A stretch of DNA of 64,000 nt from an uncultured Actinomycetes bacterium (GCA_963700665.1 CAVOYK010000009.1:52324-116323); one strand, 5' to 3'. Numbered from the stretch's first letter, positions 7,835 through 31,640 are shown. Translations and numbers: made by a program. The notes: generated by a model from the letters alone, not told the origin.

Positions 7835-9793
7835 CTAGTGGACCGCGCAAGCGATGCACGGGTCGAAGGACTGGGCAACACGCAGGGCCTCGACTCCACC
7901 CTGGCCGGAACCGGCGGTCCCGTCCTGCTTGGTGAAGCTGCCCGAGTTTCCGGCGTACGGAACACCGATCATGGCCTGCTCGATCGGGCCACGGTTGCCA
8001 AGGTAGTCCTTGGGCGAGACGTTCCACGTCGTCGGAACGATGCACTGGTACTTGGTGATCTTGCCGTTGACGATCGTGCACTGGTGCATGAGGGCACCAC
8101 GCGGAGCCTCGGTGCCGCCCCAGCCCTGCTTCGTGCCAGTCGGGATCGGCTTGTCTCTTCCACGTATCGCCAGTGGCGTACTTGAGACCACCGATCCAGC
8201 CAGCCGTGTCGTCCGCGCCGAACGCCAGCGTGGCGCCGGACTTGTCGACGGCACCGAGAATCGCCTGAACGAGGACGAGCGACTCGAGTGCGCGAGCGCG
8301 AAGGCGGTCGATGGTGGAGAGACCACCGTTGATGCCGACCACGTGACCGGCAATGGCGCCGCCGATGTAGGAGCCGGCCTCGCCGTAGAGTCCCGAGATC
8401 GTGGCAGCCGAGCCAGGACCGGTGGGACAGTTGGCCTGAGTGACCGGCACTCCGAGGCTCGAGCCCTCGAGCGTCGCCAGACCCGCGCGAATCAGCGCGA
8501 CGGCGATATCGGCAGCGACCATCTTGGGATCGAGACCCGCAAGCTTGGTGTAGTGCGCGTGTAGCCAGGAACCGTTGCCGGCAAGCGGCGTACCGTCGAT
8601 CGGATAGTAGCCGGCGACGACGAGGCGAGCGAACGGACCGACCTCGCGAGCGACGCCGCCCCAGCGCGGGGCCTTGATGTACGTGTAGCCGTTGGCACGA
8701 TTCGGCTCGGTGCGGGAAACGTCACCAGGATAGGCCTGGCAGGTTCGCCATCGTACTCACCGAGGCTGTCGCGCGTAGCGCGAGTTGGTGATGTCCTCTT
8801 GAGGTTCGTCGGGACGCTGTTGGCGCCAGCGACGAAGTTCGCGAGAACGCCGGCCTTGTCGGTGACGACAAAGTCGGTTCCGCCGGCCGGCTCCACCGGT
8901 CCACACGCCACCGGGAAGGGCGAGCGTGTCGTCGGCGGGGTTCGGGAACGCGCCCCACGCGAGGAAGTTGCCCACGCCGGCGCCGTAGCCCAGGCCGCCG
9001 GTGTTGTTGGTGTTGTCGAACGTCGGGTAGAGCACGCCGAGCGCCAGAACGATCGGCACGTACTCCTGGACGACGAAGCGTCCGACCTCTTCCATGATCG
9101 CACGGAACTTGTCGCAGCGTGTCGGCGAGGTCTTGCGGTCTTGTCGACGGTGACGCCGCCACCGATGTAGCACGAGGTCATCGGCATGCGTCCGGCGAAC
9201 AGCGCGCCGGCCTCGAAGGTGAGGCGACGGATGCGCAGCGCCATGACGTAGCTGCGGATGACGGTCGACCAGACGTCGGTCGAGCAGGCCATCGTCGTTG
9301 TCCGGAACGCGCACGGCCGTTGGACAGCAGCGCTGCGGTGTAGTCGGCGGTGGCGAAGTACGGGGTCCACGGCGGAATGGCCGGGCCCTGAACGTAGCTC
9401 GGTGCAGCCAGGTGATAGAAGTGCGTGATGCTCGACATCAGGAACTCGGAGCCCAGCACGAGGTTGCGGATGTAGACCGCCTTGGCCGGCACGCCGTAGG
9501 TCCCGTCGTCGGCGAACGTGATGTGGTTCTGGCTGTAGCCGAGAACCGCGTCAGCGGCGTACGTCGACGTCATGCCGTGAGGAACCGGGCAGACGCCGCA
9601 GATGCGCTGCGTGAACGTGATCGCGTCGTTGACCTCGCGGCCGAGCAGGAAGTTCTCGAAGCCACGCCACAGGTTGCCGTGGACGTCGGCTTCGGTGATG
9701 ATTCCGCCGGCCTCGGTGACCTTGACGCCCAGGTGACCCTCGATACGTGAGATCGGGTCGACTTCGATACGTTGCCTAGCTCGATCTAGCCAT
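7835..9793 (-). pseudogene. [NiFe]-hydrogenase large subunit; at least 7 frame changes
   Basis: ATG at 9793 follows GGAAGGAGGG. Manual translation gives RIEVDPISRIEGHLGV and RICGVCPVPHG (N-terminal Ni-binding motif). The C-terminus is SFDPCIACAVH followed by a stop. Fragments from ORFs 9178..9573, 8492..9370, 8757..9314, 7821..8522 and 7835..8353 lie in all three frames. Confidence 0.85.
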
Positions 9794-9814
9794 TATTCCC
9801 TCCTTCCCAGTTCT

Positions 9815-11159
9815 CTAGCGCGCCACGAACGGCACGAAGCTGTCAGGATAGCCCTTCTCGGTGCACGCCATGCAGGGGTGACCAGCCGCGTGCAGTGACC
9901 GCCGGTCTTCTGACCGTTGGGGGCTAGGTTCGTCGTCGGACCGCCGTAGTTCCAGGCGTCCGGGTTCTCCGGCTGCTGGTTGTTCCAGCCGTGCATGCCA
10001 CACAGCGAGTTCGTCGCGGGGCCCTTGCATCCGATCTTCTGCAGGCAGCCGGGGTCGCCGGGCTTGGCCGCGAAGTCGCCCTTGACGTAGTCGCGATAGC
10101 GCGGGCAGTACGGGCCGTGGATCGGCGTGCCGTAGACCATCTTGAGGCGACGATCGCCGTCGATGGCGTTGGCGTTGAACGACAGGTCCTGGTTGACGAT
10201 GCCCAGAGGACCGTCGGTCGCCGCGAGCGGGCCGTTGACGAGGTCGACGAGGAACAGCACGACCGTGAGGGTGAACCACCACGGGTTGGTCGGGCAACCA
10301 GGAACGTTGACGACCTTGTTGGCGGCGGCCGTGTGGCCGTGCGCAACGAGGTAGTCGTAGGTGCCCATGGCACCGGTCTGCGACTGCAGCGGATCGAAGC
10401 CCGCGGTTGCAGCGCTGATCGGGGGCTTGCAGCCCGGATAGCCGCCGAAGGTGGCGCACTGACCGATCGGGATGACCGCGACGCAGGTCGCCTTGGTCGG
10501 CGAGCGTCGACGACCGTCTCGGCCATGTCGTGCTCGATCGGTGCCGTCGGCAGACATGCCGATGGAGCACCACGGAACGCTCGTGTCGCCGTGTCGCCCC
10601 ACGCGCCGCCACCGGCAGCGTCCTGAAGCGCACCCTCGACGACGAGCACGAACGGCCGTCGCCGGGTTGGGCCGCTGATCCGGGCACGTAGTTCCTGAAG
10701 TCCTCGAGCCACTGGGCCGCGAGGTCGCCGCCCATGCCCATGACGGTCTCGTGGTACTGCAGGTCGATGACGTCGACGACGACGTCGGCGATGTTCATCG
10801 CCGAGCTGTCGCCCTCGACGTTGTAGCCCGGTCGCGTGAAGCGTGAAGTCGCGCGCCACCGAGCTGCGTCGGCAGGATGCCCGCGCAGGCCCGCGGCCGC
10901 ACCTGTCGTGATGTCGGTGCCCTCGACCGCGATGCCGCCGGTGTCCTCGAAGATGCCGAGAAGCGACGTCGAACAGCCAGTGCACTCCGCGCCGTGGATC
11001 CAAACGACCCGCGGCTTGCCGAGCGTGCCGCCGAGATCGGTGCTGCCGGTGCCGAAGGCGAACGCTCTCGACGAGCTTCGAGACTTCGGCCTGGCTCATC
11101 CCGACGGCGGCGGCGAGCGCACCCAGGCGGGTGACGAACTGTCGCCTGGTTATAGCCAT
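9815..11159 (-). pseudogene. [NiFe]-hydrogenase small subunit, Tat-exported, no C-terminal membrane anchor; at least 4 frame changes
   Basis: ATG at 11159 follows GAAGGAGGAG. Twin-arginine leader MAITRRQFVTRLGALAAAVGMSQA. Manual translation gives VVWIHGAECTGCSTSLL. Later fragments give GQCATFGGYPG, NVPGCPTNPWW and GCKGPATNSLC, ending HPCMACTEKGYPDSFVPFVAR. Confidence 0.85.
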
Positions 11160-11456
11160 ACTCTCTCCTCCTTCACATTACTCGTGAACAGTCCTCAAAT
11201 TGCATACGTGCCCGTGACTCCGAGCGTGACGAGTAAGAAAACGCCACCTCCTTTCGATCCACAGCTCAGAGGACCGGATGGAGATGGCGCGTCATCGACG
11301 CTATGAAGGCTGCTGGCGGACCCTTACCCTTGCGACGACTAGACTGCAGCGAGGTATGAGACGTCTCCGACCAGGCGGGTCTTCGTGCCGGCTCCAACCC
11401 GTTGGTCCTTCTCGGAATACCCCTCCTTCTCGGGTAACGGTGCACGTGCGAACGAC

Positions 11457-11508
11457 TTGTAACAGAAGTTACAACTGAGACTCTAAGCCCTGCGACGCCC
11501 TGCGTCAA
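11457..11508 (-). promoter_or_regulatory. Putative sigma70-type promoter (TTGACG-17nt-TAGAGT) followed after 5 nt by palindrome TTGTAAC-N4-GTTACAA
   Basis: Read on the minus strand: -35 at 11508..11503, -10 at 11485..11480, perfect 7-4-7 palindrome at 11474..11457. It lies about 300 nt upstream of the hydrogenase small-subunit ATG in a visibly lower-GC 455-bp gap. Confidence 0.45.
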
Positions 11509-11614
11509 CACCGAATCTCCATCACGAGTCCAACAGTTCTCCGAACGACTTCTCAGCTCCACTCGCGCAATGCGCCCCCGAGGGCTCATGCCGACCCCGG
11601 GGGCGCCGTGACGT

Positions 11615-13137
11615 CTACTCTTCGATCGGACCGTCAGTGGGCTGGTCCGCCTTCTTCGTGAAGCGCTCGATGAACTCGACGCGGTTGACGACGTCGACTT
11701 CGAGCGTCTTGGCCAGACGCCGCAGCTCGGCGTCCTCGGTGGCGAAGACGCGCGAGCGCTGCGCAAGCGACAGGACGATCGCCTGCTCCTCGGTGATCTC
11801 GAGCTTCTCCACGAGCGCCCGGACGTCGGACTCCGAGTACTCCATCTCGGTGAGCAGCTCGCCATGTCGACGTCGTCCTGCGTGATGTCCTTGAGCCGCT
11901 CGTAGTCCTCGGCGGTCACGAACCACTCTGCGGTTGCGAGCAGGCATGAGATGCGCCTCCTCGTTGTCCACCATGATCTGGACGAAGTCCGCGGTGGCGA
12001 AGAACTTCTTCTTGCGCAGCAGCAGCAGCAGCGGCAGGAGCAGCAGCGGCAGCAGGCACCAGCCACCAGTTCTGCGGCAGGCGGGGAATCGGCACCGGGG
12101 AGACCTGGTCCGGCCAGCCCCACACCTGCACGCGCCCGTTGGCCGTGTCGGTGATGAAGATCTTGTTGCGCCCGCCGACGCTGACGCCGTTGGGATAGCT
12201 GAACTCGCCGTCGAGCACGCCCTGCTCGCCGAAGTTCACGAGCTTGTCGCCGTCGGACGACCACATCGTCCCGTCGTGTGCGAGCGTGTCGACCACGACG
12301 AAGCGCGCGGTCTTGGTGGTCTCGTCCGACGGGAACGGCGCCAGGAACGAGATGCCTCTCGGCAGACCCTGGGTCACGATGATGCGATCGAACTCTCCGT
12401 TCTTGTCGAAGACCTGCACGCGACGGTTGTTGCTGTCCGTCACGTAGACCTCGTCCGCGGCTGAACGCGATCCCGTTGGGGAACTGGAAGAGCTCGGGCC
12501 CTGCTCGGCATCGTCGACGATGCCCGAGCGTGCCCACCGACTTCTGGAACTCGCCGTCGGGGTTGAAGATGAGCAGCCGGTGGCCGTTGAGGATCTCGGT
12601 CACGTACATCGTCCCGTCGTCGCCGAACGCGATCGCGACCGGCGCCCACTGGACTCCCGCCGGTCTCGAACGTCGGGCAGCTCGTCCTTGGGCAGCTTGG
12701 GGTCGAACTCGCCGCAGGTACTTGCCCGTCGGGCTGAAGATGTGGATGGTGCGCGCGCGCCGGTCGGACACGTAGAAGTTGCCGTCCTTGGGGTTCTTGG
12801 CGATGTAGAGCGGGACGACCGTCTCAGACGTGCCGAAGCTCCGCAGGTAGTCCCCGTCGGGATTGAAGACGCCGATCGTGTGGCGCGCCGAGTCGACCAC
12901 GTAGACGTTGGCGCCGTCGGCGAGCACGCCGACCGGACGCTGCATCCGCTGATCGGCCGCGCCGCCGTTGAACGAGTAGAGGAACTGCGGCGGCTCGATG
13001 ATGTCGCCGCTGACCGGGGCGATGTCGAACCCGAGCTTCTGCGTGCTCTGGTAGTACCTGTAGTAGAGCGCAAGGAGCAGCAGCAACAGCAGCATCGTCA
13101 CGACTATCACGATCTTGCGCTTCTGTGCCTTGGTCAA
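11615..13137 (-). pseudogene. Membrane protein: N-terminal TM, extracytoplasmic NHL-repeat beta-propeller, second TM, ~130-aa cytoplasmic C-terminal domain; at least 5 frame changes
   Basis: TTG at 13137 follows GGAGG. Sequence begins MTKAQKRKIVIVVTMLLLLLLLALYY. NHL-like blades include VYVVDSARHTIGVFNPDGDYL, FYVSDRRARTIHIFSPTGKYL, MYVTEILNGHRLLIFNPDGEF and IFITDTANGRVQVWGW. The second TM (LLPLLLLPLLLL) is encoded by a (CAG/CTG)n run at 12017-12055, where one frame change occurs. The tail comes from ORF 11615..11974. Confidence 0.65.
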
Positions 13138-13174
13138 CTGAGCCTCCGGTTCGATCAGTCGACGGGCCGACTGG

Positions 13175-14323
13175 CTACTTCGATGCCTTCTTCAGTCGAG
13201 CGACTGTCTTCTTGAGATCCTCGTTGGCGGGGTCTTCCTTGAGTGCCTTCTGGTAGACCGCGAGCGCGTCTCGTGGGTGCTCGGACTCGATCTGAGCGAT
13301 GGCTGCGAGGACGGCAGCGTCCTTCGCATCGATCGCGAGCCCCTTGCGGTAGACCTCGAGTGCGTCCCGGAAGTCCTTGCGCGCCAAGAGCACCTCGCCG
13401 TGGGCCTTGACCGCTTCGACGCTCTTGGGATCGAGATTCGTCGCGATGAGCGCCGCGTCGAGCGCCTCGTCGATCGAGCCGGCTTCGAGCTCGCTGCGCG
13501 ACCGTTCAACCCAGTCGGACGAGGGGCCGAACGCCGCCAGCGCCTCCTGCGGCAGCTCCTCATCGGGAGCGAGGTTCGCGGCCTGGAAGAAATGGTACGA
13601 GGCGTTGACCTTGTCGCCCTTCTGCTCGTAGACCTGCCCGAGCGTGTAGTGCGCCTCGGCGAAGCCCGGATCGAACGCGAGGGCGAACTCGAGATTGGAG
13701 ATCGCCGCGTCGTAGTCTTCCAGACCGCGAAGCGCGCGCGCGAGGTAGCAGGTAGGTGTCCGAGGCGTCCTTCCGGATGCGCAGCGCGCCCTTGAAGTAG
13801 CCGGCCGCCTCCTCGTACTCCTCTTGCTGCAGCGTGATCACGCCCAGGTTGTACAGCGCATTCTCCCGGCGCTCGTCGACCTGCGAGAACTGGGCCGCCT
13901 TCGGTGAGCTCCAGGACCTTCTTGAAGTAGAGCTTGGCCTTGTCGTCCTGATCGTCGAGCATCGCCACCATGCCCAGATCGAGATAGGCCCCGATGTGCT
14001 TGGGGTCGATCTTGAGTGCGGCGTTGAACTGCTCGATCGCCTCGGGGTACTTGCCGGCAGCACCGAGCGCCTCGCCGAGCCTCACGCGCAGGATCACGTC
14101 GTTCGGCGACTTGCGTACCTGCGCCTCGAGGGCCTTGATGACTCGAGTGGGTGCGTTGGTCAGCTCCTGGCGCTGCATGTTCTGCCACACGCGTGTAGCC
14201 GAACCACGCCGGCCAAGCGCAACGACGGCGACCACGAGCGCGACAACGGCCACGTTCAGGCCGGTATCGAGACTCCTGGCGGGGCTCAGCTGGCTGCGGC
14301 ATCTCCTCGTACGCTTCAGTCAT
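13175..14323 (-). pseudogene. Membrane-anchored TPR-repeat protein; at least 4 frame changes
   Basis: ATG at 14323 (MTEAYEEMPQPAEP), TM helix VAVVALVVAVVAL, then repeated TPR units from ORFs 13192..14253, 13560..14063 and 13175..13393 (e.g. AIEQFNAALKIDPKHIGAYLDLG and ALEVYRKGLAIDAKDAAVL). Confidence 0.65.
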
Positions 14324-14406
14324 GCTCTCTGCAACCTCGATTCGTCTCTGGCGCGGAACGACAGAAGCCTGGCCGTGCCAAGCACGAGCACAGAGGTAGA
14401 TGCAAA

Positions 14407-16001
14407 CTAGACTCCAACGTCCGTGTGACAGCGAATACAGAGCGACGCGCCCTTGTAGGGGGCTATCTGCCGGTTGAACGGGTCGAGCGCACCGTGGCAA
14501 TCGTAGCAGAGCCGCAAGTCGTGCCCTTGCTGTGCAGCCGCCTTCTGGGCCGCCTCGACTCTCACCAAAGCTCACGTGACACTCGTAGCACTTGTAGGGC
14601 TTGCCCTTCTCTTTGGCAACGTTGAAGTGAACGGCGTGCTCGGCGATCCCCTTGTGCTGGATCGACGTCGCCGGCTTCTGCTTCGCGATCGGGTGACACG
14701 GCGACGCAGTTCTTCTCGACCAGCTCGGCGTTCTTCACGTTGCCGTGGTGGCAGTCTTGCAGCTCTTGCGGTCACGATGGCAGATGAAGCAGTCGCTCGA
14801 CTCCGACGCCCGGAGGCGGCCTGTGGTCGGCGATGAAGGCCGGCGTGTGCGGGACCACGGTCTGGTGACACCTCTGGCACGACGGGCCCGTGTGGCAGAC
14901 CCCGCACGTCCAGGAGCCCTCAAGGAAGAGCTTGCCGTGCTGGCTCCGCCACTTCGCGTCCTTGTGGTCGGCCGGGAATCACCGGCTTGTCGGGGGCGTA
15001 GGGTCCGCTCCCCTTGCCGTTGTGACAGTCGATGCAGAACTTCTCCCCGTGACACATCGCGCAGTACGCGGGGTCTTTGAGCGCTCTGTTCTTGTGCTTG
15101 CCCTTGGCGAACTTCTTCGTGTGGTTGGCGGGCTTGAGTTCGAACGACTTGGGGTGGCACTTGTCGCAGTCCTCTGTTGCGATCTGGCCGCCTCTCGCGT
15201 GCTGGAGTCCGTGACAGCGGTAGCACGACAGCATGTCGGGCGTCTGCACGCCGTCGGGGTTGTGCGGGAACTCCTGGTGACACGCCTCGCACTGGTAGTT
15301 GCGAACGAGGTGGTCGGCGTGGGCGAAGATCACCGTCCCGGGAGTGATCGCGTCGAGGTCGGGGTGACAGTACACGCACTGCGACATCGAGACCGGGCCG
15401 TCGGGGTAGATCTTGACCGACGGCGTCCTTGGGTCGCGGCTGGAACACCGTGTGGTAGGCGTCGGGCATCTCGGGTACGTCCGGCGCCTCGTCCGCATGA
15501 CACTCGTTGCAGTCGGTCGATGCGTTGTGGCACATCATGCACGAGTTGACTCCCTGCGCGATCGCCGGCCTTGGCATGAGGCTTCTTGGCCCAGTCGTCG
15601 CCGTGGTCCTTGGGACGCAGATCGAATGACTTGGTGTGGCAGTCCTTGCACTCGCTCGTGGCCAGCTCGCCTTGGGGGCCGTGCTCGACTCCGTGGCAGG
15701 CGAAGCACACCTCCATGGGGATGCGCTCGGTCACGCCGTCTCTGTGCGGCAAGCGCGAGTGGCAGCCGTCGCAGCTGACCAGCAGGTGGTTGCCGTGACT
15801 GAACTTCAGCCCGGGCACGTTCACCGATCCAAGATCCAGGTGACACGGTGCGCACTGTGTCGGCTCGACCGGCGCCGCTGTGTCGATCACCGGGTCCTCG
15901 GCGGCGTCTCCCATGGGCGCGGACGCAAGCAGGAAGGCGGCCGCGATAGCAATCGCGACCACCCCCCAGAGCAGTAGCCTTCTGTTGGTCCGGCGCAGCA
16001 A
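14407..16001 (-). pseudogene. Secreted multihaem c-type cytochrome with about 20 CxxCH motifs; at least 6 frame changes
   Basis: TTG at 16001, sequence MLRRTNRRLLLWGVVAIAIAAAFLLASA. Motifs by manual stitching of ORFs 15330..16001, 14735..15577 and 14920..15498 plus other frames: CAPCH, CDGCH, CFACH, CKDCH, CMMCH, CNECH, CVYCH, CEACH, CYRCH, CDKCH, CAMCH, CIDCH, CGVCH, CQRCH, CFICH, CKDCH, CVACH, CYECH, CYDCH, CIRCH. Stop is TAG at 14407. Confidence 0.7.
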
Positions 16002-16032
16002 CCCTGCCGCCCGTCTCCTTATGTTGCGACCC

Positions 16033-17344
16033 CTAGCCGCCGCCGGTGATTCGCGAAATCAGCTGCAGCAGCGGATTGTCCTGGGTCTTCTGCGCTTTCG
16101 TATGGATGAGCTCAGCAGCAGCCGCGCCAAACTGCTCGTTGGAGCCCTGATGGCATCCTTCTTTGCCGCACGTCTCCCCGACGTTGGCGGGATTGACGCT
16201 CGATTCGGGGTCTTCTTTGGACAGCACTTTGTGTGAGTTGTGGCAGTCCCAGCACGCCGGCGCGTCGGATGCGCCGGACTTGTACGCCCTGCCGTGGTAG
16301 TAGTCGTCGTAGGTGTCGTACTCGTCGCCGTGCTGCTTGCAGCGCGCGCACACGCGATACGAGGACATGTGCATCCGCTGCTTGGCGAGCTCGGTGTCGA
16401 GGCGGTAGATGTAGTGGCCGCCATGGCACGACCCGCACGTCGCCGAGTCGTAGTTGCCATCCTCGAGCGCCGCCGCATGGGTCGACTTGTTGTACGCCGG
16501 CACCACGTCGCTCAGGTTCTTCTCCTTCTGCTCCTCGTGACAGGCGCCGCACGCATCACTGGCGTTGACGGTCCACAGCTGACTCGCCTGCGCCTGGTCG
16601 TCGTAGCGGTAGTCGGGGTGGCACTCCTGACACGTGACGTCGGTGTGCGCCGAGGCGTTCAGGCCAACGACCTCGAACGACCTCATCCCGGTGGCCGAGC
16701 GCTTGTTGAGCGCGTCTCCGTGGCACGCAAGGCACCCGTCACCGGCGTTGTAGTCCCAGCTCGCGGGCGCCCAGACGACACCCTCTTGGTCGTGACACTC
16801 GGTGCACGACTCGGGCTTGTGGCACATCGCGCACCTGGTGTTGAACTCCTTCTCGGCGGGAGCCACGTGCTCCTTGCCTGCCCAGCCGTACGTGTGGAAG
16901 GCGGGACGCAGTCGCTCCTTGGGGGTGACGTGGCAGTCCTCGCATGCGTCAGAGGCGATGATGCCCATCGGCCCGTGCCGTACGCCGTGACAGTCGAAGC
17001 AGCCCTTCATGTCCGGCCGCTCGATCGTCGCGTCCGCTCTGTGAGGGAAGCGCGGGTGACAGGCGCTGCACGACACGAGCTGGTGATAGCCGTGCTGGAA
17101 GATGATCGACGACGAGTAGTTCTTCGTCTGCGCGATGTTGCCATGGCACGTCAGAGTGCACGCGTCCTTGTAGACCGGCGTGTCCTGAAGCGTCTGGAAG
17201 AGCTGCTCGAACGATTGCGGGTCGGCATCGGTGGGTGCCTCGGCGGCCATCGCGACGCTCGCACCGAGAACCGCCGGCGAACGCCAAAGCTGCGAGAGCG
17301 ACCCCGAGCATCCTGCCGAGGCGATGTCGGAACCTGATCGCCAT
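16033..17344 (-). pseudogene. Secreted multihaem c-type cytochrome (10 CxxCH plus CX3CH, CxxCK and CX4CH variants); 1 frame change in the signal peptide
   Basis: ATG at 17344, MAIRFRHRLGRMLGVALAALAFAG. After a 1-nt shift near 17270 it joins AVLGASVAMA-AEAPTD of ORF 16033..17559. Motifs: CTLTCH, CSACH, CFDCH, CEDCH, CAMCH, CTECH, CLACH, CQECH, CGACH, CGSCH, CARCK, CWDCH, CGKEGCH. Confidence 0.75.
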
Positions 17345-17387
17345 GTCGTCGTACCCCTTCTTCCCTGCGGAGCGGACCCCGCAAACG

Positions 17388-18307
17388 CTACTGGAACAAC
17401 GCTGCTATGTTCTCCAGCGCCGCCGAAATACCTTGCTTCGCCGAGTCGTAGAGTGCCCACAACGGGTTCTGCTCGAGAGCGTCTTGCTTGCCGTGAATCA
17501 GCTCGGCGTACTCCACGAACTCCTCGTTCACGTCCTGGTGGCAGCCCTCTTGCCCGCACGTCTCAACGAGATTGTCCGGGTGGACGGGCGAGGCCTTGTC
17601 GCTGGCGGGCAGAACCAGATGGGCGCCGTGACAGTCCCAGCAGGCTGGGGCGTCCCACGGAGCGCCCTCCCGATAGGCCGCACCGTGGTAGTAGTCGCTG
17701 TAGGTCTCGGCGCCGTCCGTGTGGCAGTCGCCACAGATCTCGATGCCATCCTTCTGGAACGCCACCTGTGCGGCAGTGTCCTCCTTCGACGGCACTGCGT
17801 GACCTCCGTGGCACCCGCCGCACGTCGGGATCTCGGTAGGCTTCCCCTCGGCCTCTCGCACTGCGGCCTGCTGCTCGGCCGTGACGTTGGGCGGGAGAAC
17901 CGGCGAGTGCGCGACCGCCGTTGATCTCATCCTTCTGCCCGACGTGGTCCTTGCAGCTCTGGCACGACGCTGTTTGCCACCGCCTTCCACGCGTAGCTGT
18001 CCCCCGCGTTCTCGTGCGGAGTCTTGAGCGCGAAGTCGACGTGGCAGCCCGTACACAGAGCCTCAGGGTGAGCCGACGCGTCCAAGACCACCTGGTCAAC
18101 GTAGAGCGACGACGTCGTCTCCGCGCTGGTCTGCTGCAGGCCGGGATCCCCATGGCACACCATGCAGCCGGACTTGCCGGCCGTGGGCAGCGTCCAGTCC
18201 AGGTTGTAGGTCCGGCTCGACTCCTTCGACGAAGCCGCGTACGCCGCACACGGCAGCAAGAGCAAGAACGCCGCAACCAAGACCACTATGGCGTGCCGTG
18301 CTCTCAC
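17388..18307 (-). pseudogene. Secreted multihaem c-type cytochrome, shorter paralogue of 16033..17344; 2 frame changes
   Basis: Signal peptide MRARHAIVVLVAAFLLLLPCAAYA. Motifs CMVCH, CTGCH, CQSCK (in a short frameshift-flanked segment), CGGCH, CGDCH, CWDCH, CGQEGCH. The C-terminal half aligns by eye with the neighbouring paralogue (YYHG.AY..G...APACWDCH). Confidence 0.7.
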
Positions 18308-18324
18308 GTGCGCGCGAACCTCCC

Positions 18325-19149
18325 TTATGCGTGTTCTGCCGACGCGTACGAGGGAGCCGGCTCGTGACCGTCTCCGCCGTGCTCGTCTTCGTCAGTGTGT
18401 GCAACTTTCCGGCCGAGACCGCTCATACCGAAGAAATCAAGGAACGCCGGGAAGTCCTCGGTGACCGAGAGGTACACGTGGATCGTGGTCAGGATGATGA
18501 AGAGCCAGTTCACGATGTAGTGGCCGGTCCGAACCCAGAAGATGCCCTCGGCGCCGATGAGTCCGGCGGAAAGCTGGTACAGACTCGCGTTGATGATCGG
18601 CAGCGGCAGACGCCACAGCATCAGACCCGTGATCGCCTGCACTATCAGAAGCGGCACGAACAGCGTGTAGGTGCCCTTCTGCATGACGTTGTACTTGCCG
18701 AGGTGGGGCTTGGAGGGCTTGACGAAGATGTAGTAGAGGATGACTTGGGGCGCGGTCGTGATGTCGCGCTTGGTGATCGCGAACTCCTTGTAGTCACGCT
18801 GCCGAGAGGCGAACGCGTACCACAGGCGCCAGATGAGGTTCACGATCACGATCCACATGAAGATGTAGTGGGCCCAGCGCATCGGAGTCCGGTTGAACTG
18901 GGGGAACCGGATGAGCAGGCCCGTGACGGCGAGCATGATCATGCTGAAGACGTGCATGAAGTGAAGGAACTTGGGCAGGAAGGGAGGATGGCTGTCGTGG
19001 TGAGGCCATTCCCACTGCTTGCCAAAGCGGCGCTTCGCGCGCCCGCTCAGGATATTGCCGATGAAGTGACACGACAACGCGATCAAGATGACCACGTAGA
19101 GCGACGTGAACACCACATCGAGCCAGACATTCAGTTGCGTCAGTCCCAT
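18325..19149 (-). CDS. Integral-membrane b-type cytochrome (Ni/Fe-hydrogenase CybH / FdnI-like family)
   Basis: Intact ORF with ATG at 19149 (MGLTQLNVW...). It has multiple TM helices with His residues (HFIGN, HFMH, HYIFMW, HYIVNW, IHVYL). It is the first gene of the cytochrome operon. Confidence 0.6.
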   Translation of the reverse strand: MGLTQLNVWLDVVFTSLYVVILIALSCHFIGNILSGRAKRRFGKQWEWPHHDSHPPFLPKFLHFMHVFSMIMLAVTGLLIRFPQFNRTPMRWAHYIFMWIVIVNLIWRLWYAFASRQRDYKEFAITKRDITTAPQVILYYIFVKPSKPHLGKYNVMQKGTYTLFVPLLIVQAITGLMLWRLPLPIINASLYQLSAGLIGAEGIFWVRTGHYIVNWLFIILTTIHVYLSVTEDFPAFLDFFGMSGLGRKVAHTDEDEHGGDGHEPAPSYASAEHA

Positions 19150-19266
19150 CGACTGACACCCCCTACTCCCGTGTCGCGCCCGGCCTGGGCATGATGACCC
19201 CTCAGCTCCCGTGGCGTGACTCCACCTAGCGACGCTGTCCGGGCGCCGAGATACGGGGCTGAAGGC

Positions 19267-19315
19267 TTGTAACACCAGTTACGAGCAGAATAGGGGCGCT
19301 GAGCAGGAGTGTCAA
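19267..19315 (-). promoter_or_regulatory. Putative sigma70-type promoter (TTGACA-17nt-TATTCT) followed after 2 nt by palindrome TCGTAAC-N4-GTTACAA
   Basis: Read on the minus strand: -35 at 19315..19310, -10 at 19292..19287, palindrome at 19284..19267 (plus strand TTGTAACACCAGTTACGA). It lies about 130 nt upstream of the cytochrome b ATG. Confidence 0.45.
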
Positions 19316-19329
19316 CGAGAACGCAGTCT

Positions 19330-19581
19330 CTACACATCTTCGATAAGGGTCTTTCCTGCCACCATTATCGCTGCCCGCTCCAGGTACTCCTCGGCACGTT
19401 TTGCCTGCTCAGGCGGTATGCGCAGGGCGATTCCGCACAGAGCGCCGACGGCCGCTGGTGACGGAATCGGGACCACGTCGAGCCCCATGTCCTCGAGCAG
19501 CGCCTCCGCTCCCAGAGCGTCGTGCGTCGACGAGAAGCCGAGCACGACGAAGGTGCGCGGACGTCGACCGTCGTCAGCCAC
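19330..19581 (-). CDS. DUF3343-like small protein (family described as putative Se/S carrier-like)
   Basis: 83 aa: MADDGRRPRTFVVLGFSSTHDALGAEALLEDMGLDVVPIPSPAAVGALCGIALRIPPEQ. The start overlaps the LysR stop by 8 nt. Confidence 0.5.
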   Translation of the reverse strand: MADDGRRPRTFVVLGFSSTHDALGAEALLEDMGLDVVPIPSPAAVGALCGIALRIPPEQAKRAEEYLERAAIMVAGKTLIEDV

Positions 19582-20467
19582 GGGATGCGCTCAATAGGTA
19601 CTCACGAAACGCCTGGGCAGCCCGCGTCGGGGTTCCTTTGGGCAGTACGACGAGGAGCGGACGCGAAAGCGGGAGCCCGTCGGCATCGACCCGAGCGACC
19701 GAGCCAAGGCTGATCGCCTTCTCGGCGACATGCCGACTCACGATCGCTACTCCAAGCCCGCCCTCAACCGCGCTCACCACGGCCTCACCGGTACCCAGCT
19801 CGACCACGACCCTGAGCTCTTGAGGTTCGACGCCACTTTCGGCGAGCAGGGCCTCGGCCACTTGGCGCGTCCCTGAGCCCTGCTCTCGCTGGACCCACGG
19901 CTCGTCGGCGAGATCCGCGAGGGGCACCGACGTGCGCGACGCGAGCGGACTGCTCGGCGGGCAGATCAGCACCAGATCGTCGCTGCCGAACTGCTCGAAC
20001 TGCACCCTCGCTCCCTTGACGACAGCGCCCGTGATCCCCAACTGGGCACGGCCCGCTTCGATGTCCTCGACAACGTCATAGGAGTCGCGAACCTTGATGG
20101 TCACCGTGACCTCGGGGTGCTCGGCGAGGAAGCTTCCCAGGAGCCGAGGCACCACGTAGTCGCCCGGCGTTGTGCTGGCAACGATGTTCAGGTGTCCGGA
20201 GACGGTCCCGGACAGCGACGAGATCTCCTCGCGCGCCTCATCGAGCTGCTCCAGGACTCGCTTCGCGTGCGGAAGAAGGGTCCGCCCGGCCTCGGTGAGG
20301 TCGACCTTCCGATAGCGGCGGTCGAGCAGTGTCGTGCCCAACGCGGCCTCGAGCGCCTGCACCTGCATCGTGACCGCAGGCTGCGAGATATCGAGCTCAC
20401 GGGCCGCCTCGGAGAACGAACCGCGCTCGACGACGGCGACGAAGGTGCGAAGCTGCGTGATGTTCAT
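19574..20467 (-). CDS. LysR-family transcriptional regulator
   Basis: 297 aa, intact. N-terminal HTH MNITQLRTFVAVVERGSFSEAARELDISQPAVTMQVQALE followed by a substrate-binding domain. Confidence 0.85.
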   Translation of the reverse strand: MNITQLRTFVAVVERGSFSEAARELDISQPAVTMQVQALEAALGTTLLDRRYRKVDLTEAGRTLLPHAKRVLEQLDEAREEISSLSGTVSGHLNIVASTTPGDYVVPRLLGSFLAEHPEVTVTIKVRDSYDVVEDIEAGRAQLGITGAVVKGARVQFEQFGSDDLVLICPPSSPLASRTSVPLADLADEPWVQREQGSGTRQVAEALLAESGVEPQELRVVVELGTGEAVVSAVEGGLGVAIVSRHVAEKAISLGSVARVDADGLPLSRPLLVVLPKGTPTRAAQAFREYLLSASRG

Positions 20468-20498
20468 AAGCGCATGCCTTCCTCGGTGACTGAAACGA

Positions 20499-20513
20499 TA
20501 AGAACAGACTATG
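20499..20513. promoter_or_regulatory. Candidate LysR-type T-N11-A box ATAAGAACAGACTAT
   Basis: Dyad ends ATA...TAT with T-N11-A spacing, 32 nt upstream of the lysR start, in the lysR/fur divergent region. Confidence 0.25.
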
Positions 20514-20558
20514 GACCGATTCTACGCGCATCCGGACTCGAAGGGGCGAAACGTGGGG

Positions 20559-20586
20559 TATACTCACTTAGTGAGAATGATTCTCA
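20559..20586 (+). promoter_or_regulatory. Possible -10 (TATACT) followed by a perfect 7-1-7 Fur/Zur-type box TGAGAATGATTCTCA
   Basis: TATACT at 20559-20564. The palindrome at 20572-20586 lies 31 nt upstream of the Fur-family gene ATG. Confidence 0.55.
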
Positions 20587-20616
20587 TTTGGCTTGGGGCG
20601 CGCGAGGGGGCGAGAC

Positions 20617-21042
20617 ATGGGCGATGAGCTGCGATCCGCGTACGGGCGTGGACGACTCACCGCTCAAAGAGCCGCGATCGCCAGAGCGGTCACCGGCATC
20701 CCCTCCGCCTTCACGGTGGAAGAGCTCGCCGCAGTCGTCCGACGAGCCGACTCCGGCGCCGGCGCCACCGCCACGGTCTATCGGGCAGTAGCTGCGATGG
20801 AGTCATCCCGTTTCGTAGAGCGTGTCGGCTCTCGCAACGGCAGCGTTCTGTACGCACGCTGTGCGACCCCCTCTCACCACCACCATATCGTCTGCGACGG
20901 CTGTGGCCGTATCGCCCACGCCGAGTGTCCCGTCGTCGCGGGCGTGGAAGCGAGACGCGGCGACGGCTTCGTGATCACCAGGCACGAGGTCACGCTCTAC
21001 GGGCTGTGCCCCGAGTGCGCCGAGAAGAACGGCGGGGCGTAG
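20617..21042 (+). CDS. Fur-family metalloregulator (Zur/Nur-like)
   Basis: ATG at 20617 follows GAGGGGG. Sequence includes LTAQRAAIARAV...TVEELA...TVYRAVAAMESSRFVERV and HHHHIVCDGCG...GLCPEC. Confidence 0.75.
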   Translation: MGDELRSAYGRGRLTAQRAAIARAVTGIPSAFTVEELAAVVRRADSGAGATATVYRAVAAMESSRFVERVGSRNGSVLYARCATPSHHHHIVCDGCGRIAHAECPVVAGVEARRGDGFVITRHEVTLYGLCPECAEKNGGA

Positions 21043-21043
21043 C

Positions 21044-21842
21044 GTGTCTCACATCCACATCCCCGACGGCATCTTGCCACTCTGGCTGGTAGCGCTGGGC
21101 TGGCTTGCGACCGCTGCGCTGGTGACCGTCGCGGTTCGACGTGCCAGCGCACAGGACGTGCGCCGGCGCATCCCACTTGTGGGAGCCGTCGCCGCGCTGA
21201 TGCTCGTGGGCATGTCGAGCGAGATCATCCCGATCGCCTACCACATCAACCTCACGGTGCTCGCGGGAATCCTGCTCGGACCCTGGCTGTCCGTGATCAC
21301 GGCGCTCGTGGTCAACGTGATGCTGGGGCTGGTGGGCCATGGCGGCGTAACGGTGATCGGCCTGAACACCCTGGTGATCTCTGCGGAGATGATCGTGGGC
21401 TGGGCGCTGTTCCGCGGATTCGCCAGGGTCCTGGGGCGGCGCCGGGCCGGGCTCGCCGCTGGGGCGGCAACGATCCTTGCGCTGGCCGTGTCGACCTCAC
21501 TGCTCGTGGTCATCGTCGCGCTCGGGGGCAGCCCCTCGGCAAGCCGTGAATCGGGCGCCTTCGACCCGGGGACGCTGAGCTTCGAAAACCCGCTGCGCGG
21601 TGGAGTGTTCACCAACGTCATCGTCGCCGGCGAGCAGGAGGCCGAGGCCCCGCAGCAACTCTCGGTCGCACGCTTCGCCGTGACGGTGTTCGCGCTCGGA
21701 TCGATCGGCTGGATACTCGAGGGCCTGATCACCGGCATTGATCGTCGGATTCGTGGCCAGGGTACGGCCGGGGCTCGTGTTCGATGGCGCTCAGGCTGAG
21801 CCTACACGAGGGCCCGTTGGCGACGAGGGGGTGCACACGTAG
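21044..21842 (+). pseudogene. cbiM: CbiM/NikM-type ECF transporter substrate-capture subunit (Ni/Co); 1 frame change near 21745
   Basis: Sequence VSHIHIPDGILPLWL... with multiple TM helices. After a 1-nt shift the C-terminus reads LIVGFVARVRPGLVFDG, ending at TAG 21840-21842. Confidence 0.65.
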
Positions 21843-22651
21843 TGGACCTCTCCCGAGTCGATACGTCCGCCACTCTGGGTACCTCAGCCCTGCACCGCAC
21901 AGTCCCGAGAGCCAAGCTAGCCGCGTTCGCACTGGTGCTCGTGGCGGTCGTGGTGAGCTCGAACGTGCTCATCGTTGTGACCGTTGGCTGCTGTCTGATG
22001 GCAGCGGTTGTGGCACTTCGGCTGCCGCTGAGACCCATCGCGCTGCTGGCGGCATACCCGGGCATCTTCGCCGCGATCTTCGCCTTCGCGGCCGCGACCG
22101 ACCTGCTCTCCGCGTCACTGATCGTCGCAAAGGCGGTCACGGCGGCGCTCGCCGCCGTGATTCTCATGTTCACCACCCCGTACCCGCAGGTGTTCGCGCC
22201 CGTACAGCGCGTGGTACCGGAAGTGATCGCCGACGCGCTGCTCATGACGTACCGTTCGCTCTTTCTGCTTCTCGAGCGGTTCGGTCACACGCTGACAGCC
22301 GCACGGCTTCGGGCGGGCGTAGTCGGCCGCAACCCCCTGAGATCCGCGGGCACGATCACTCGCTCGCTGGGCGGCGTGCTGCTCTACTCGATCGACCTGT
22401 CGCAGCGCACCCACGACATCATGCACCTGCGCGGCTACGACGGCAGGCTGGTCGTCACCGCGCAACCATCGGTGTCACGGCGGCTCGATCTGGCCACCGT
22501 GGCGTTTGCCGCGTCACTGTGCGCCGTCGCGATTGCTTGGCGGCTGTGGTGGCCGGCCCTCAACCCCTATGCATGGGTGCCGCTCGCGGTCTCGCTGGCG
22601 GCGCTGCCTGTGGCCCTGCTCCTCGGCGTGCTTCGAAAGGACCACCCGTGA
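21842..22651 (+). CDS. cbiQ: CbiQ-type ECF transporter transmembrane (T) component
   Basis: 269 aa, intact and hydrophobic, with ARLRAGVVGRNPLR and SIDLSQRTHDIMHLRGY. Start and stop overlap the neighbouring genes. Confidence 0.65.
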   Translation: MDLSRVDTSATLGTSALHRTVPRAKLAAFALVLVAVVVSSNVLIVVTVGCCLMAAVVALRLPLRPIALLAAYPGIFAAIFAFAAATDLLSASLIVAKAVTAALAAVILMFTTPYPQVFAPVQRVVPEVIADALLMTYRSLFLLLERFGHTLTAARLRAGVVGRNPLRSAGTITRSLGGVLLYSIDLSQRTHDIMHLRGYDGRLVVTAQPSVSRRLDLATVAFAASLCAVAIAWRLWWPALNPYAWVPLAVSLAALPVALLLGVLRKDHP

Positions 22652-23536
22652 TGGACGCGCATACCCACGCCCACGCCCACGAGCTCTTGCACGCCACGCT
22701 CGACGAGGTGGCGCGTGTAAGCTGCGTGCGCCACCGCTACGAAGACGGCACCGAGGTCGCGCTGTGCGGTCTGGACGTCGTCGCGCACAAGGGCCAGCGC
22801 GTGGCCGTTCTGGGCCCGAACGGCTCGGGCAAGACGACGCTGCTCTACCACCTCCTGGGGCTGCTTCGCAGCGAGGAAGGCCTGGTGCGCGTCTTTGGTG
22901 TGGATCCCGCTCGCGAATGGAAGAGTATCCGCCAGCGGGTCGGTGTCGTGCTGCAGAACGTCGACGAGCAGATACTGGCCCCCAGCGTGCTCGACGACGT
23001 CGCCTTCTCCCCTCGGCAGTACGGTGTGCCGGAGGCACAGGTCCGCGAGATGGTCCAAGAGGCGCTCGCCCGCCTCGGCATCGAGCACTTGGCGGGGCGC
23101 GTCCCGCACAACCTCTCCGGCGGCGAGAAGCGCAAGGTCGCCCTGGCCGGCGCGCTGGTGATGCGCCCCGAGCTGCTCGTCCTCGACGAGCCGTTCGAGG
23201 GCCTCGACCCGGCGAGCCGCGACGAGCTGATCGCGATCGTGGGCGAGCAGGCCAAGGGCGGCGGCACCGTGATCATGTCGACACACGACATCGACACCGT
23301 GCCGGAGTTCGCCGACTACTGCTACGTGCTGCTCCAAGGGCGGTACCATCGTGCTCGAGGGCACCCCGGCCGACGTGTTCGCGCAGGCCACGATGCTCGC
23401 CGGCGACAACATCCGACCGCCCCTGATCGCCGAGATGTTCGCGCGTCTGGCCGAGCTCGATCCCAGCGCGCCACCTCCGGCGCTCACCGTCGAGGACGCT
23501 GCCGAGAAGCTCGCCGAGTGGAAGCGCGGAACCTAG
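22651..23536 (+). pseudogene. cbiO: CbiO-type ECF transporter ATPase; 1 frame change near 23340
   Basis: ATG at 22651 overlaps the cbiQ TGA. Walker A GPNGSGKTT, signature LSGGEKRKV, Walker B LLVLDEPFEGLD. The C-terminus comes from ORF 23351..23536. Confidence 0.8.
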
Positions 23537-23554
23537 CGCGACGTGCGGATGCGA

Positions 23555-24783
23555 CTACTCGTCGTCCGAAGCGGCCGGCATCCGACCCATCTCGAGCACG
23601 CGCTCGCCGAACGCCGCTCCCCACGCACGCGCGGCCTCGATGTCCGTCGGCGACGGCGCGTACTTGCAGGTGAGGTCGGGTTCGGGCATCTCGAAGCCCG
23701 ATCTCCTCGAGCCGCGCCGTCATCTGCTTGGTGGCTCCGCTCGACCAGCCGTAGCTGCCGAAAGCGCCCGCGATCTTGTCCTTGGGCTTGAGCCCGCACA
23801 GGTACTGCAGGTAGCCGGCCGGGCGGTACAGCATGCCGTGATGCAGCGTCGGCGAACCCACGAAGCAGAGCTCGCGCGTCGAAGACGTGGCGCGTGACGT
23901 GCGCGTAGGGTGTCGACGCGAGATCGAACAGGCGGACGTCGACGCCGGCTCGACGTAGCGCCATCCGCGATCTCGCGGGCCAGGACGTCGGTCGAGCCCC
24001 ACATGGTCCCGTAGGCGATGACGAGCTTGTCGAACGTGTCGCCCGAGATGCAACGGTCGTAGGCGTCGACAAGGGTGGGTACTTCTCGGCCACGCCAGAT
24101 GACACCGTGGCTCGGCGCGATCGTGTCGCACGTCCAGCCTGCCTCGATGACCTTCGCAACCGCCTTGCCCACCTGAGCGCTGATGCGGCATCAGGATGTT
24201 GGCGAAGTAGACGATGAGCTCCTCGACTGCTAGCTCCAGGCCGACCTCGTCGGCGAAACGTGAGCTCGAGGCAAGGTGCTGCCCGAAGGCGTCGTTGGGC
24301 ATGAGGGTGCAGCGCTCAGGGCAGTAGGTGAACATCGAGTCCGGCCAGTGCACCATAGGCATCGGCATGAACTTGAGGGTGAGGCCACCGAGGTCGAGCG
24401 AGTCGTCGGGACCGACGGCTGCCACCTCGATGTCGTCGCCGTGGTAGCTCGGCGATGCCACGAACGCCGCCGGCGCTCGCGACGAGCTTGGCGTTGGGCA
24501 TGCGCTCGGCGACCATGCGCATGCCGCCGTTGTGGTCGGGCTCGATGTGGTTGACGACGATGTAGTCGATCTGGTCGAGCGGAACCACGCTCGCGACGCG
24601 CTCGAGAAGCTCGGGCACGAACGGCACCTTCACGGTGTCGACGAGAGCGATCTTGTCGGCACCGACCACGAGGTAGGCGTTGTACGTCGAGCCGCGAGGC
24701 GTCTCGAAGCCGTGGAAGTCGCGCAGGTTCCAGTCGATCGCACCTACCCAGTGAATATCTGGCGCAATGGGGACAGCATGCAT
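23555..24783 (-). pseudogene. Flavodiiron protein (FprA-type O2/NO reductase: metallo-beta-lactamase-like plus flavodoxin-like domains); at least 3 frame changes
   Basis: ATG at 24783 follows GAGGAG. Sequence MHAVPIAPDIHWVGAIDWNLRDFHGFETPRGSTYNAYLV...VVNHIEPDHNGG. The flavodoxin-like part comes from ORFs 23720..24172 and 23484..24461. Manual translation of the end gives GFEMPEPDLTCKYAPSPTDIEAARAWGAAF, with TAG at 23555. Confidence 0.75.
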
Positions 24784-29929: not shown

Positions 29930-30391
29930 CTACTGGACGGCGGTCACCACGTAGTCGAGCTGGGTCGTCGATGTCTCGATCCGCGAGACTGTCACGAAGC
30001 CCTCGAGGGCATCACCCGTCACCGTCAGCACGACGCTTCCGGCATCCTCCCCGCCCGTTTGCTCCTGCGCGACCTTCCACCCGGCCTGCTCGAATCCGGC
30101 GGCGATACCGCTGAGCACGTCCTCATAGGGGTCTGAGGTCACCAGCGTCAGACCGTACGCATCTTCGGTACCCGCGGACTCGAGCACCTCAGCTCCGGGC
30201 CACAGGGGCAGACCCTCAGGGGTGTCGGCTGACAGCTCCCCCATCACCTCGGCACCAGCGACGGCTACCGTCGCTTCTTGAGTGACGACCTTGGGGGGAG
30301 GCGTGAATCGCTCCTCGAGGCTCTTGCAGCCAACCAGCGCGAACAACAGGACGGCTGCCAGTGCGGACAGTGTGATGGTTCGGCGGTTCAT
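29930..30391 (-). CDS. Lipoprotein of unknown function
   Basis: ATG at 30391, MNRRTITLSALAAVLLFALVGCKS lipobox. Acidic mature part. Confidence 0.5.
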   Translation of the reverse strand: MNRRTITLSALAAVLLFALVGCKSLEERFTPPPKVVTQEATVAVAGAEVMGELSADTPEGLPLWPGAEVLESAGTEDAYGLTLVTSDPYEDVLSGIAAGFEQAGWKVAQEQTGGEDAGSVVLTVTGDALEGFVTVSRIETSTTQLDYVVTAVQ

Positions 30392-30631
30392 GCGAAGTCT
30401 CCTCGGACGGTCACCGCAGCGCCGCGACGAGTCGGGCGCAGACCTGTATGTGGCGGAAGCGTCTGGAAATCGAATCCAGCCAGGAGGCTCTTCACCCCCC
30501 ACGACGGTTTTGAAGACCGCGGAGCCCACCAGGACCCATCCGCCTCCGTCGGACGATTGTGGAGAGGACGCCGGAGCGTGTCAAACACACCGCACAATTG
30601 GGCAGCTACTGCACGACGAGAGGGGTTCGAA

Positions 30632-31537: not shown

Positions 31538-31640
31538 GAGGCGTTGGCGCTGCTAGCGGGCGTGAGAGGTTTCTCATCCTGGTCTCATGTGGCGTTCACC
31601 GTGCGAGCCGATGCTAGGTGTTGCACGCGCCTCGGCAACC

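Follow-up and report, generated by a model that had tools for sequence, protein, structure and literature searches.

What acts at a palindrome that lies just past the -10 hexamers of two promoters, one (P1) ahead of an operon for a cytochrome b and multihaem cytochromes and the other (P2) ahead of the genes for a [NiFe] hydrogenase, and how far does the set of genes that it marks extend? In the window, by which we mean the whole 64-kb stretch of DNA that was analysed, the palindrome has two copies, O1 and O2 (Table 1). The exact dyad GTAAC-N4-GTTAC occurs twice there and had a mean of 0.00 in 100 dinucleotide-preserving shuffles, and the two sites seen in the preliminary description at the cytochrome b/multihaem and hydrogenase promoters are thus real. 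Its further statement that the full dyad is found at only two places was borne out by a search with the 18-mer, which at three or fewer mismatches returned only O1 and O2, and both do stand directly past a -10 element, by 2 nt for O1 and by 5 nt for O2. The pentamers GTAAC and GTTAC together have only nine occurrences in the 64 kb, four of which are inside the two dyads, and a search for the dyad that allowed one mismatch gave at least two matches in 7 of 100 shuffles of the window. In addition, a consensus promoter scan of 10900-20600 produced just two sigma-70-like promoters, P1 and P2, each of them ahead of a dyad. The two sites are identical at 13 of 14 arm positions and at 15 of 18 bases overall, figures that replace an earlier miscount of 17 of 18 shared positions, and while the register of the TGTAA-N6-TTACA core does fit the TGTGA-N6-TCACA class (CRP/Rex) with which it had been compared, the left arm of O1 reads CGTAA and not TGTAA. 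There is also an extra single GTTAC at 11434-11438 (minus strand), 18 nt downstream of O2, which could serve as an auxiliary half-site, although relatives do not obviously keep it.

Table 1. Promoter elements, predicted operators and genes at the two promoters of the window.
Feature	Position	Strand	Basis and remarks
Promoter P1, -35 hexamer TTGACA	19310..19315	minus	Sequence reading and promoter scan; TTGACA/TTGACT kept with the same spacing in orthologous loci
Promoter P1, -10 hexamer TATTCT	19287..19292	minus	17-nt spacer from the -35; orthologues have TATCCT, TATTCT or TAGTAT
Operator O1 (predicted), TCGTAAC-TGGT-GTTACAA = TCGTAACTGGTGTTACAA	19267..19284	minus	'gc' after the -10; spans the predicted transcription start
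Promoter P2, -35 hexamer TTGACG	11503..11508	minus	Sequence reading and promoter scan
Promoter P2, -10 hexamer TAGAGT	11480..11485	minus	17-nt spacer from the -35; sequence reading and promoter scan
Operator O2 (predicted), TTGTAAC-TTCT-GTTACAA = TTGTAACTTCTGTTACAA	11457..11474	minus	Perfect palindrome, 5 nt (ctcag) past the P2 -10
Cytochrome b (Ni_hydr_CYTB / b561 family), first gene of the P1 operon	18328..19149	minus	Pfam PF01292, E=5.9e-19; 75% identity to the L006 orthologue, one frame
Remaining P1 operon: multihaem-like hypothetical protein, two multihaem cytochromes c, TPR protein, NHL-repeat protein	11648..18214	minus	Pfam; tblastn
[NiFe] hydrogenase small subunit (hydS), Tat signal MAITRRQFV	9818..11159	minus	PF14720, PF01058; frameshifted into four frames
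[NiFe] hydrogenase large subunit, C-terminus DPCIACAVH	about 7835..9765	minus	PF00374; frameshifted
Se/S-carrier-like gene	19330..19581	minus	PF11823; ends just upstream of P1
LysR-family regulator	19574..20467	minus	PF00126, PF03466; co-oriented with the P1 operon, divergent from the CbiM-type transporter
CbiM-type transporter gene	21044-21799		Divergent from the LysR gene

The genes behind the two promoters have to be read through a number of broken frames. Each of the P1-operon genes after that of the cytochrome b is split over two to four frames, in which tblastn with the intact orthologues from L006, one of the related loci, finds collinear pieces, and over the whole of 7835-18214 (minus strand) there are about 15 frame changes in 10 kb relative to intact orthologues, so that nearly all genes except the cytochrome b gene are split. 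The nearest relatives being Microflora Danica (MFD) metagenome-assembled genomes, these breaks look like uncorrected long-read indel error and not like pseudogenes; the LysR gene of another locus (L001) has the same frameshift defect. The dyads are non-coding, and the finding that concerns them is unaffected. The start codon of the hydrogenase is about 300 nt past O2, which implies a long leader. From operator to start codon, the leader measures about 120-140 nt at cytochrome b, about 300 nt at hydS and, in relatives, about 400-450 nt at formate dehydrogenase; these lengths are conserved, and no Rfam family matches the leaders. The Se/S-carrier-like gene upstream of P1 has an orthologue in 47 related loci, mostly directly upstream of the cytochrome b promoter.

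Whether the dyad has a wider meaning was judged from 71 related loci (about 1.13 Mb), retrieved by the cytochrome b protein and nearly all from uncultured Coriobacteriia. In 40 of the 71, a site that agrees with the dyad in at least 12 of its 14 arm positions precedes cytochrome b, 119-216 nt before the start codon, and the exact form GTAAC-N4-GTTAC occurs 73 times in the related loci, where pentamer counts lead one to expect 0.06. Over the wider Coriobacteriia set, i.e., the window plus the related loci (about 1.3 Mb, a small part of each genome), there are 30 sites at zero mismatches, 70 at one or fewer and 95 at two or fewer, as against 0-1 for two control palindromes of the same composition. 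Position counts for the 73 exact sites give tTGTAAC[T/A]nnTGTTACAA. The dyad has two conserved places in the related loci, one at the cytochrome b promoter and one at a second promoter that is downstream of it by 7.5-8.3 kb, the latter being the position of O2, where it is found in 38 related loci ahead of either hydS or a molybdopterin enzyme with a Tat signal (formate dehydrogenase). This enzyme is a selenocysteine formate dehydrogenase, with a Tat signal, a Molybdop_Fe4S4 domain and an in-frame TGA, its open reading frame running ...EHQARI-TGA and then HSSTVAGLAAAFGRG (HSSTVAGL after the TGA).

All of the sites in the related loci precede genes for cytochrome b, hydS, the formate dehydrogenase alpha subunit, a TPR protein or molybdenum-cofactor synthesis. 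Extra sites were drawn from a promoter-plus-dyad scan of all genomes and from a formate dehydrogenase query, and these added further [NiFe] hydrogenase paralogues and formate dehydrogenase operons, some of them on other contigs of the sampled genomes (L214, L225, L238, L316). The dyad was seen ahead of the TPR gene once (L214) and ahead of the molybdenum-cofactor genes mobA/fdhD-moeA once (L026), and one more site at zero mismatches was beside an SDR gene in an Actinomycetes metagenome-assembled genome of uncertain affiliation (L097). The formate dehydrogenase query gave 22 loci, a count that excludes the cultured Anaerosoma and Parvivirga isolates, and in 17 of these the gene is preceded, at about 400-450 nt, by the dyad; an Anaerosomatales genome (L311) has it at both cytochrome b and formate dehydrogenase.

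Since the dyad is conserved at several respiratory gene sets in relatives, the regulon is clade-wide and has more than two members, and the "two-member regulon" of the preliminary description was too narrow, as the relatives' operator is also found at further [NiFe] hydrogenases, selenocysteine formate dehydrogenases and TPR and molybdenum-cofactor genes. The pair in the window is a local view of this clade-wide regulon, which has three to five operons. Two outcomes would have spoken against any such regulon, orthologous promoters that lack the dyad or a motif that is common and free of promoters; what the related loci hold is an abundance of exact dyads tied to promoters. A regulon that joins H2 and formate oxidation with multihaem cytochrome conduits in uncultured Coriobacteriia appears to be new, and so does an HcpR2-like core in a Rex-like position.

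Several observations touch on the limits of this set of genes. In some genomes (L014, L015, L018), the dyad is kept at the hydrogenase promoter and gone from that of cytochrome b, and most cytochrome b paralogues of no more than 50% identity are without it, from which it follows that regulon membership turns over within the clade. Other multihaem cytochrome genes of the window, at 871-1827, 6457-7491 and 30278-33254 (MtrC/MtrF-like, paired-CXXCH and NapC/NirT-type), have no dyad, and thus only some cytochrome clusters are in the regulon; the NapC/NirT cluster is followed by an OmpR-type response regulator and a kinase (33781-35845). The window also has a selenium toolkit consisting of SelB (35872-37791), SelA (41947-43344), a SelD-like AIRS protein (44457-45416) and the Se/S-carrier-like gene (19330-19581), which is consistent with the selenocysteine (in-frame TGA) formate dehydrogenases that bear the same operator in relatives.

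The position of the dyad relative to the promoter is informative as to how it might work. At 76 promoters, the dyad was always downstream of the -10 element, at a distance of 2-19 nt, the transcription starts being predicted ones. The -10 ends 4 nt before GTAAC at the cytochrome b promoters of 24 of 32 loci, which puts the predicted start inside the left arm. Promoters of hydS have 6-15 nt in this interval, and those of formate dehydrogenase mostly 14-17 nt. Orthologous loci keep both the -35 and the -10 hexamer, and no conserved -10 element was found in them downstream of the dyad. That the dyad is always past the -10, at a variable distance, is the geometry of a repressor and not of a class I/II activator; it argues against an activator of the CRP type, and an activating role was rejected. 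The palindrome is probably the DNA operator of a homodimeric helix-turn-helix repressor that would be encoded elsewhere in the genome. Dozens of species keep the dyad at both promoters, and it is therefore very probable that the two operons answer to one trans-acting regulator, in keeping with what had been proposed for the pair. The sites, their conservation, the strong -35/-10 promoters that always accompany them and the genes that make up the regulon are observations, while repression, read from consensus promoters, and the identity of the protein are inferred.

Based on this geometry, the predicted start would be covered by the dyad at the cytochrome b/multihaem promoter, and at the hydrogenase promoter, as at the formate dehydrogenase promoters of relatives, it would be within the first roughly 10-35 transcribed bases. 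A bound dimer would then be expected to block either open-complex formation by RNA polymerase or promoter escape, and a single signal could switch the whole module, from H2 and formate oxidation through quinone to the multihaem cytochromes. This is an ordinary repressor-operator arrangement that involves no new regulatory principle.

Other explanations for the palindrome, and other proteins that might bind it, have to be weighed against this reading. As the whole dyad would be transcribed at the hydrogenase and formate dehydrogenase promoters and could fold into a stem of 7 bp closed by a 4-nt loop, it might be thought an RNA hairpin of the 5' leader with a role in stability, processing or protein binding. 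At cytochrome b, however, the predicted start is inside the left arm, and the arms are conserved in sequence beyond mere complementarity; among 85 distinct sites and seven pairs, 3 pair cells were compensated and 88 broken. With arm changes that are uncompensated and no Rfam family that matches the dyad, it is the sequence itself that is conserved, and a hairpin is therefore very improbable. For the two dyads to be a functionless chance resemblance has next to nothing in its favour, even though there are only two sites in the window and the one-mismatch search was matched by 7 of 100 shuffles: with no exact dyads in the shuffles and the great excess of them at the same promoters in relatives, chance is already refuted.

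The LysR-family protein encoded next to P1 (19574-20467) was a more natural suspect to consider, and in 26 related loci an orthologue (54-81% identity) stands upstream of the cytochrome b operon at a distance of no more than 10 kb, either adjoining the operon or beyond molybdenum-cofactor genes. The preliminary description had named it as an alternative with a misfit in spacing; the misfit stands, since the dyad gives T-N10-A and not the LysR-typical T-N11-A, but the synteny in 26 loci was left out of account there, and because of it LysR stays a weak rival. Much else is against it: a lone site past the -10 is not the usual LysR layout, the LysR gene is co-oriented with the operon, the divergent CbiM-type transporter is a more typical LysR target, the upstream region of the LysR gene has no dyad, and other contigs have dyads at hydrogenase and formate dehydrogenase loci that are remote from any LysR gene. 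All in all, we consider LysR an improbable regulator of the two operons. Over 19574-23673 the window has this gene and, divergent from it, a CbiM / ABC-ATPase transporter cluster of the cobalt/nickel ECF type; elsewhere, the orthologue of this LysR gene stands ahead of a set of genes for molybdenum-cofactor biosynthesis. Two other regulators have half-sites that look alike. The operator of HypR (Rrf2 family) in S. aureus, TAATTGTAACTA-N3-CAGTTACAATTA, overlaps the -10 (PMC6067689) and shares with the dyad both the TTGTAAC / GTTACAA half-sites and a repressor role; its arms, however, are 7 bp apart as opposed to 4 here, so that the dimer geometry differs, and HypR/Rrf2 was rejected on arm spacing. 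The NikR sites of delta-proteobacteria, GTGTTAC-N13/14-GTAACAC, have one predicted target that is a hydrogenase (PMC545781) and similar GTTAC/GTAAC half-sites, but their spacing is 13-14 bp and their usual arm orientation the opposite, and NikR was rejected on both counts; the formate dehydrogenase and cytochromes found here share no nickel logic.

Searches for the gene of the regulator itself covered the window and the Coriobacteriia loci. Using tblastn, Rex, CRP, FNR and IscR had no match in the window or in those loci, which are a small part of each genome; the CRP/FNR queries recovered known positives, and the Rex queries (B. subtilis, T. aquaticus, S. coelicolor) were approximate sequences with no positive control. 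A signature search for Rex likewise gave no hit in the window or the Coriobacteriia loci. A Crp/Fnr profile made from nine sequences recovered all known positives in other loci and found nothing in the window or the Coriobacteriia loci, and Pfam searches of about 40 open reading frames of the window identified the LysR protein and the OmpR-type response regulator with its kinase, with nothing of the Crp/Fnr or Rex type. The earlier statement that the window has no Crp/Fnr or Rex gene therefore agrees with all three kinds of search, although the frameshifts make the negative less than absolute. Weak tblastn matches in two loci (L065 and L056) were discarded as regulators after they proved to be a TPR protein and a MarR protein. 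About 24 matches of the promoter-plus-dyad scan were in Coriobacteriia and no regulator gene was among them, so that there is no sign of autoregulation to point to the protein. A global scan with TTGTAAC-N4-GTTACAA was of little use for the clade, AT-rich genomes dominating among the matches listed. An HcpR2-like profile was also run against the protein database, and its best 120 hits, only some of which are named, were of Firmicutes type where named and none identifiably Coriobacteriia.

Nor can the motif stand in for the gene. In other phyla, TetR genes and chrB/chrA genes have the same dyad after a -10 element, and the motif alone thus does not name the protein; furthermore, Rex and CRP boxes share one register, which the dyad fits in both cases, and the motif therefore cannot separate Rex from Crp/Fnr. 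Our leading candidate, held tentatively, is a Rex-type NADH/NAD+ sensor that would have the half-site TTGTAAC in place of TTGTGAA; a member of some other repressor family, or an HcpR2-like Crp/Fnr protein, comes close to it in probability, none of the three reaching an even chance. Rex is an NADH/NAD+-sensing repressor whose operator (ROP) is TTGTGAA-N4-TTCACAA, with a TTGTTAA arm in clostridia, and we know of no description of a Rex with the TTGTAAC half-site. The dyad has in common with the Rex operator an 18-bp 7-4-7 inverted repeat with TTGT...ACAA ends, a site that overlaps or follows the core promoter (the starts here being predicted) and targets among respiratory and hydrogenase genes. 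The two differ at arm positions 5 and 7, which are A and C here and G and A in Rex, so that the arm is neither TTGTGAA nor TTGTTAA. They differ too in that the targets here are extracytoplasmic H2 and formate oxidation and multihaem cytochromes and not NADH-linked fermentation enzymes, and in that the searches of the window and of the Coriobacteriia loci gave no rex gene.

In T. maritima Rex, Arg48 and Lys49 contact two operator bases, a G and an A (PMC8836258); they correspond to positions G3 and A6 of the 18-mer, which TTGTAAC retains. A probe of S. mutans adhE that was used as a Rex-binding site, TTGTGAAAAGGGTTACAA, has GTTACAA as one of its arms (PMC3441419), and a Rex-type repressor gene is reported inside a multihaem cytochrome cluster of Parvivirga hydrogeniphila, which belongs to the order Anaerosomatales (PMC9686372). 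Anaerosoma tenue M08DHB reportedly has no such gene. Canonical Rex boxes at two or fewer mismatches were sought in the approximately 1.3 Mb of Coriobacteriia DNA, and there were none. It is the 7-4-7 layout, the retention of G3 and A6, the S. mutans arm, the repressor positions, the lack of canonical Rex boxes and the Parvivirga Rex-type gene, taken with the dyads of the Anaerosomatales genome L311, that support the candidacy of Rex.

Classical CRP/FNR sites (TGTGA-N6-TCACA, TTGAT-N4-ATCAA) are at -41.5 or -61.5 and activating, and the dyad, which has the same spacing register and is one base per half-site off CRP, differs from them in being at or after the predicted start. A member of this family with the specificity of HcpR2 (recognition helix R-P-S-L-S-R), acting purely as a repressor of the respiratory module, has to be considered all the same, since the core of the dyad is the exact HcpR2 motif, GTAAC-N4-GTTAC, with an identical 14-bp core and register. 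That motif was predicted by Rodionov et al. in 2005 and tied to a change of Glu181 to Pro in the recognition helix of this Crp/Fnr protein; HcpR2 sites are between hcpR2 and hcp, and the local regulons that they make up, with one or two operons each, were predicted for Firmicutes, Bacteroidetes, Thermotogales and spirochaetes (PMC1274295). The extended HcpR2 consensus, TGTAACAnnTGTTACA, also fits the dyad, and the Coriobacteriia regulon resembles FNR-type anaerobic regulons. Moreover, in nine loci from Bacteroidales, Clostridia and Bacilli, Crp/Fnr genes (cNMP_binding and HTH_Crp_2 domains) directly adjoin TGTAAC-N4-GTTACA; two of them are divergent from hcp (L207, L255), and the recognition helix is R-P-S in five of seven such sequences, the other two (L204, L292) having S-R-M-T-L-Y-R. 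On the other hand, the approximately 95 Coriobacteriia sites are all past the -10 at variable distances and none is at the activator position (about -41.5), which is unusual for Crp/Fnr. The gene hcp was found only in Bacteroidales and Clostridia loci and is absent among the Coriobacteriia targets seen, neither the window nor any Coriobacteriia locus gave a Crp/Fnr gene in the profile search, and the best 120 HcpR2-like database hits were, as noted, none of them identifiably from the class. In place of a local regulon with hcp as a target and the regulator adjacent, there are three to five dispersed respiratory operons with all of the sites at repressor positions, and we regard a Crp/Fnr protein as rather unlikely, though only a little less probable than Rex.

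As an observation in its own right, hcpR2-hcp loci were found at L207 5489-8000, L255 5298-6934, L122 208-1835 and L171 4004-5674, each with a Crp/Fnr gene (helix R-P-S-L-S/A-R) divergent from a gene for a ferredoxin and/or the hybrid-cluster protein and with TGTAAC-N4-GTTACA between them. At the level of sequence, these loci in new Bacteroidales and Clostridia genomes confirm the 2005 prediction.

To return to the Coriobacteriia, an undescribed global regulator, which would be either a re-tuned Rex or a repressor-only Crp/Fnr protein, may govern the entire module for lithotrophic electron input and extracellular electron transfer in uncultured members of the class from soil and the subsurface, OPB41/Anaerosomatales included, a proposal to which we would give slightly less than an even chance. 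The module would consist of the [NiFe] hydrogenases, the selenocysteine formate dehydrogenase, the cytochrome b/multihaem conduits and molybdenum-cofactor synthesis. Coriobacteriia of this kind, few of which are in culture, occur widely in soils, in sediments and in the deep subsurface; for growth, the relatives that have been cultured use H2 or formate together with Fe(III) or sulfur compounds (PMC9686372). One easily recognised operator that marks the promoters of hydrogenases, formate dehydrogenases and multihaem cytochrome clusters would be a simple means of defining a functional respiratory module in metagenome-assembled genomes, and of predicting which of their many multihaem clusters work with H2 and formate oxidation. 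It could also be used as bait for the sensor protein, and hence for the signal that turns on extracellular electron transfer.

Beyond the class, the same dyad turned up in several settings. TGTAAC-N4-GTTACA comes straight after the -10 ahead of chrB/chrA chromate-resistance genes in Chloroflexota, Bacillota, Symbiobacterium, Planctomycetia and others (L194, L199, L201, L218, L229, L235, L289, L297, L300, L304; ChrB_N and ChrB_C by Pfam), where it may be an undescribed operator of the ChrB type. An MFS transporter gene of Anaerolineae is preceded by tandem dyads in two loci (L210, L242) and by a single dyad in three (L236, L245, L261). Finally, in Lachnospiraceae and related bacteria there is a gene beginning MKTAILVDGGFYRRR, whose product has no Pfam hit in its first 70 residues, and ahead of it a TATAAT-plus-dyad promoter is conserved in nine loci (L215, L227, L241, L253, L256, L287, L295, L299, L302).
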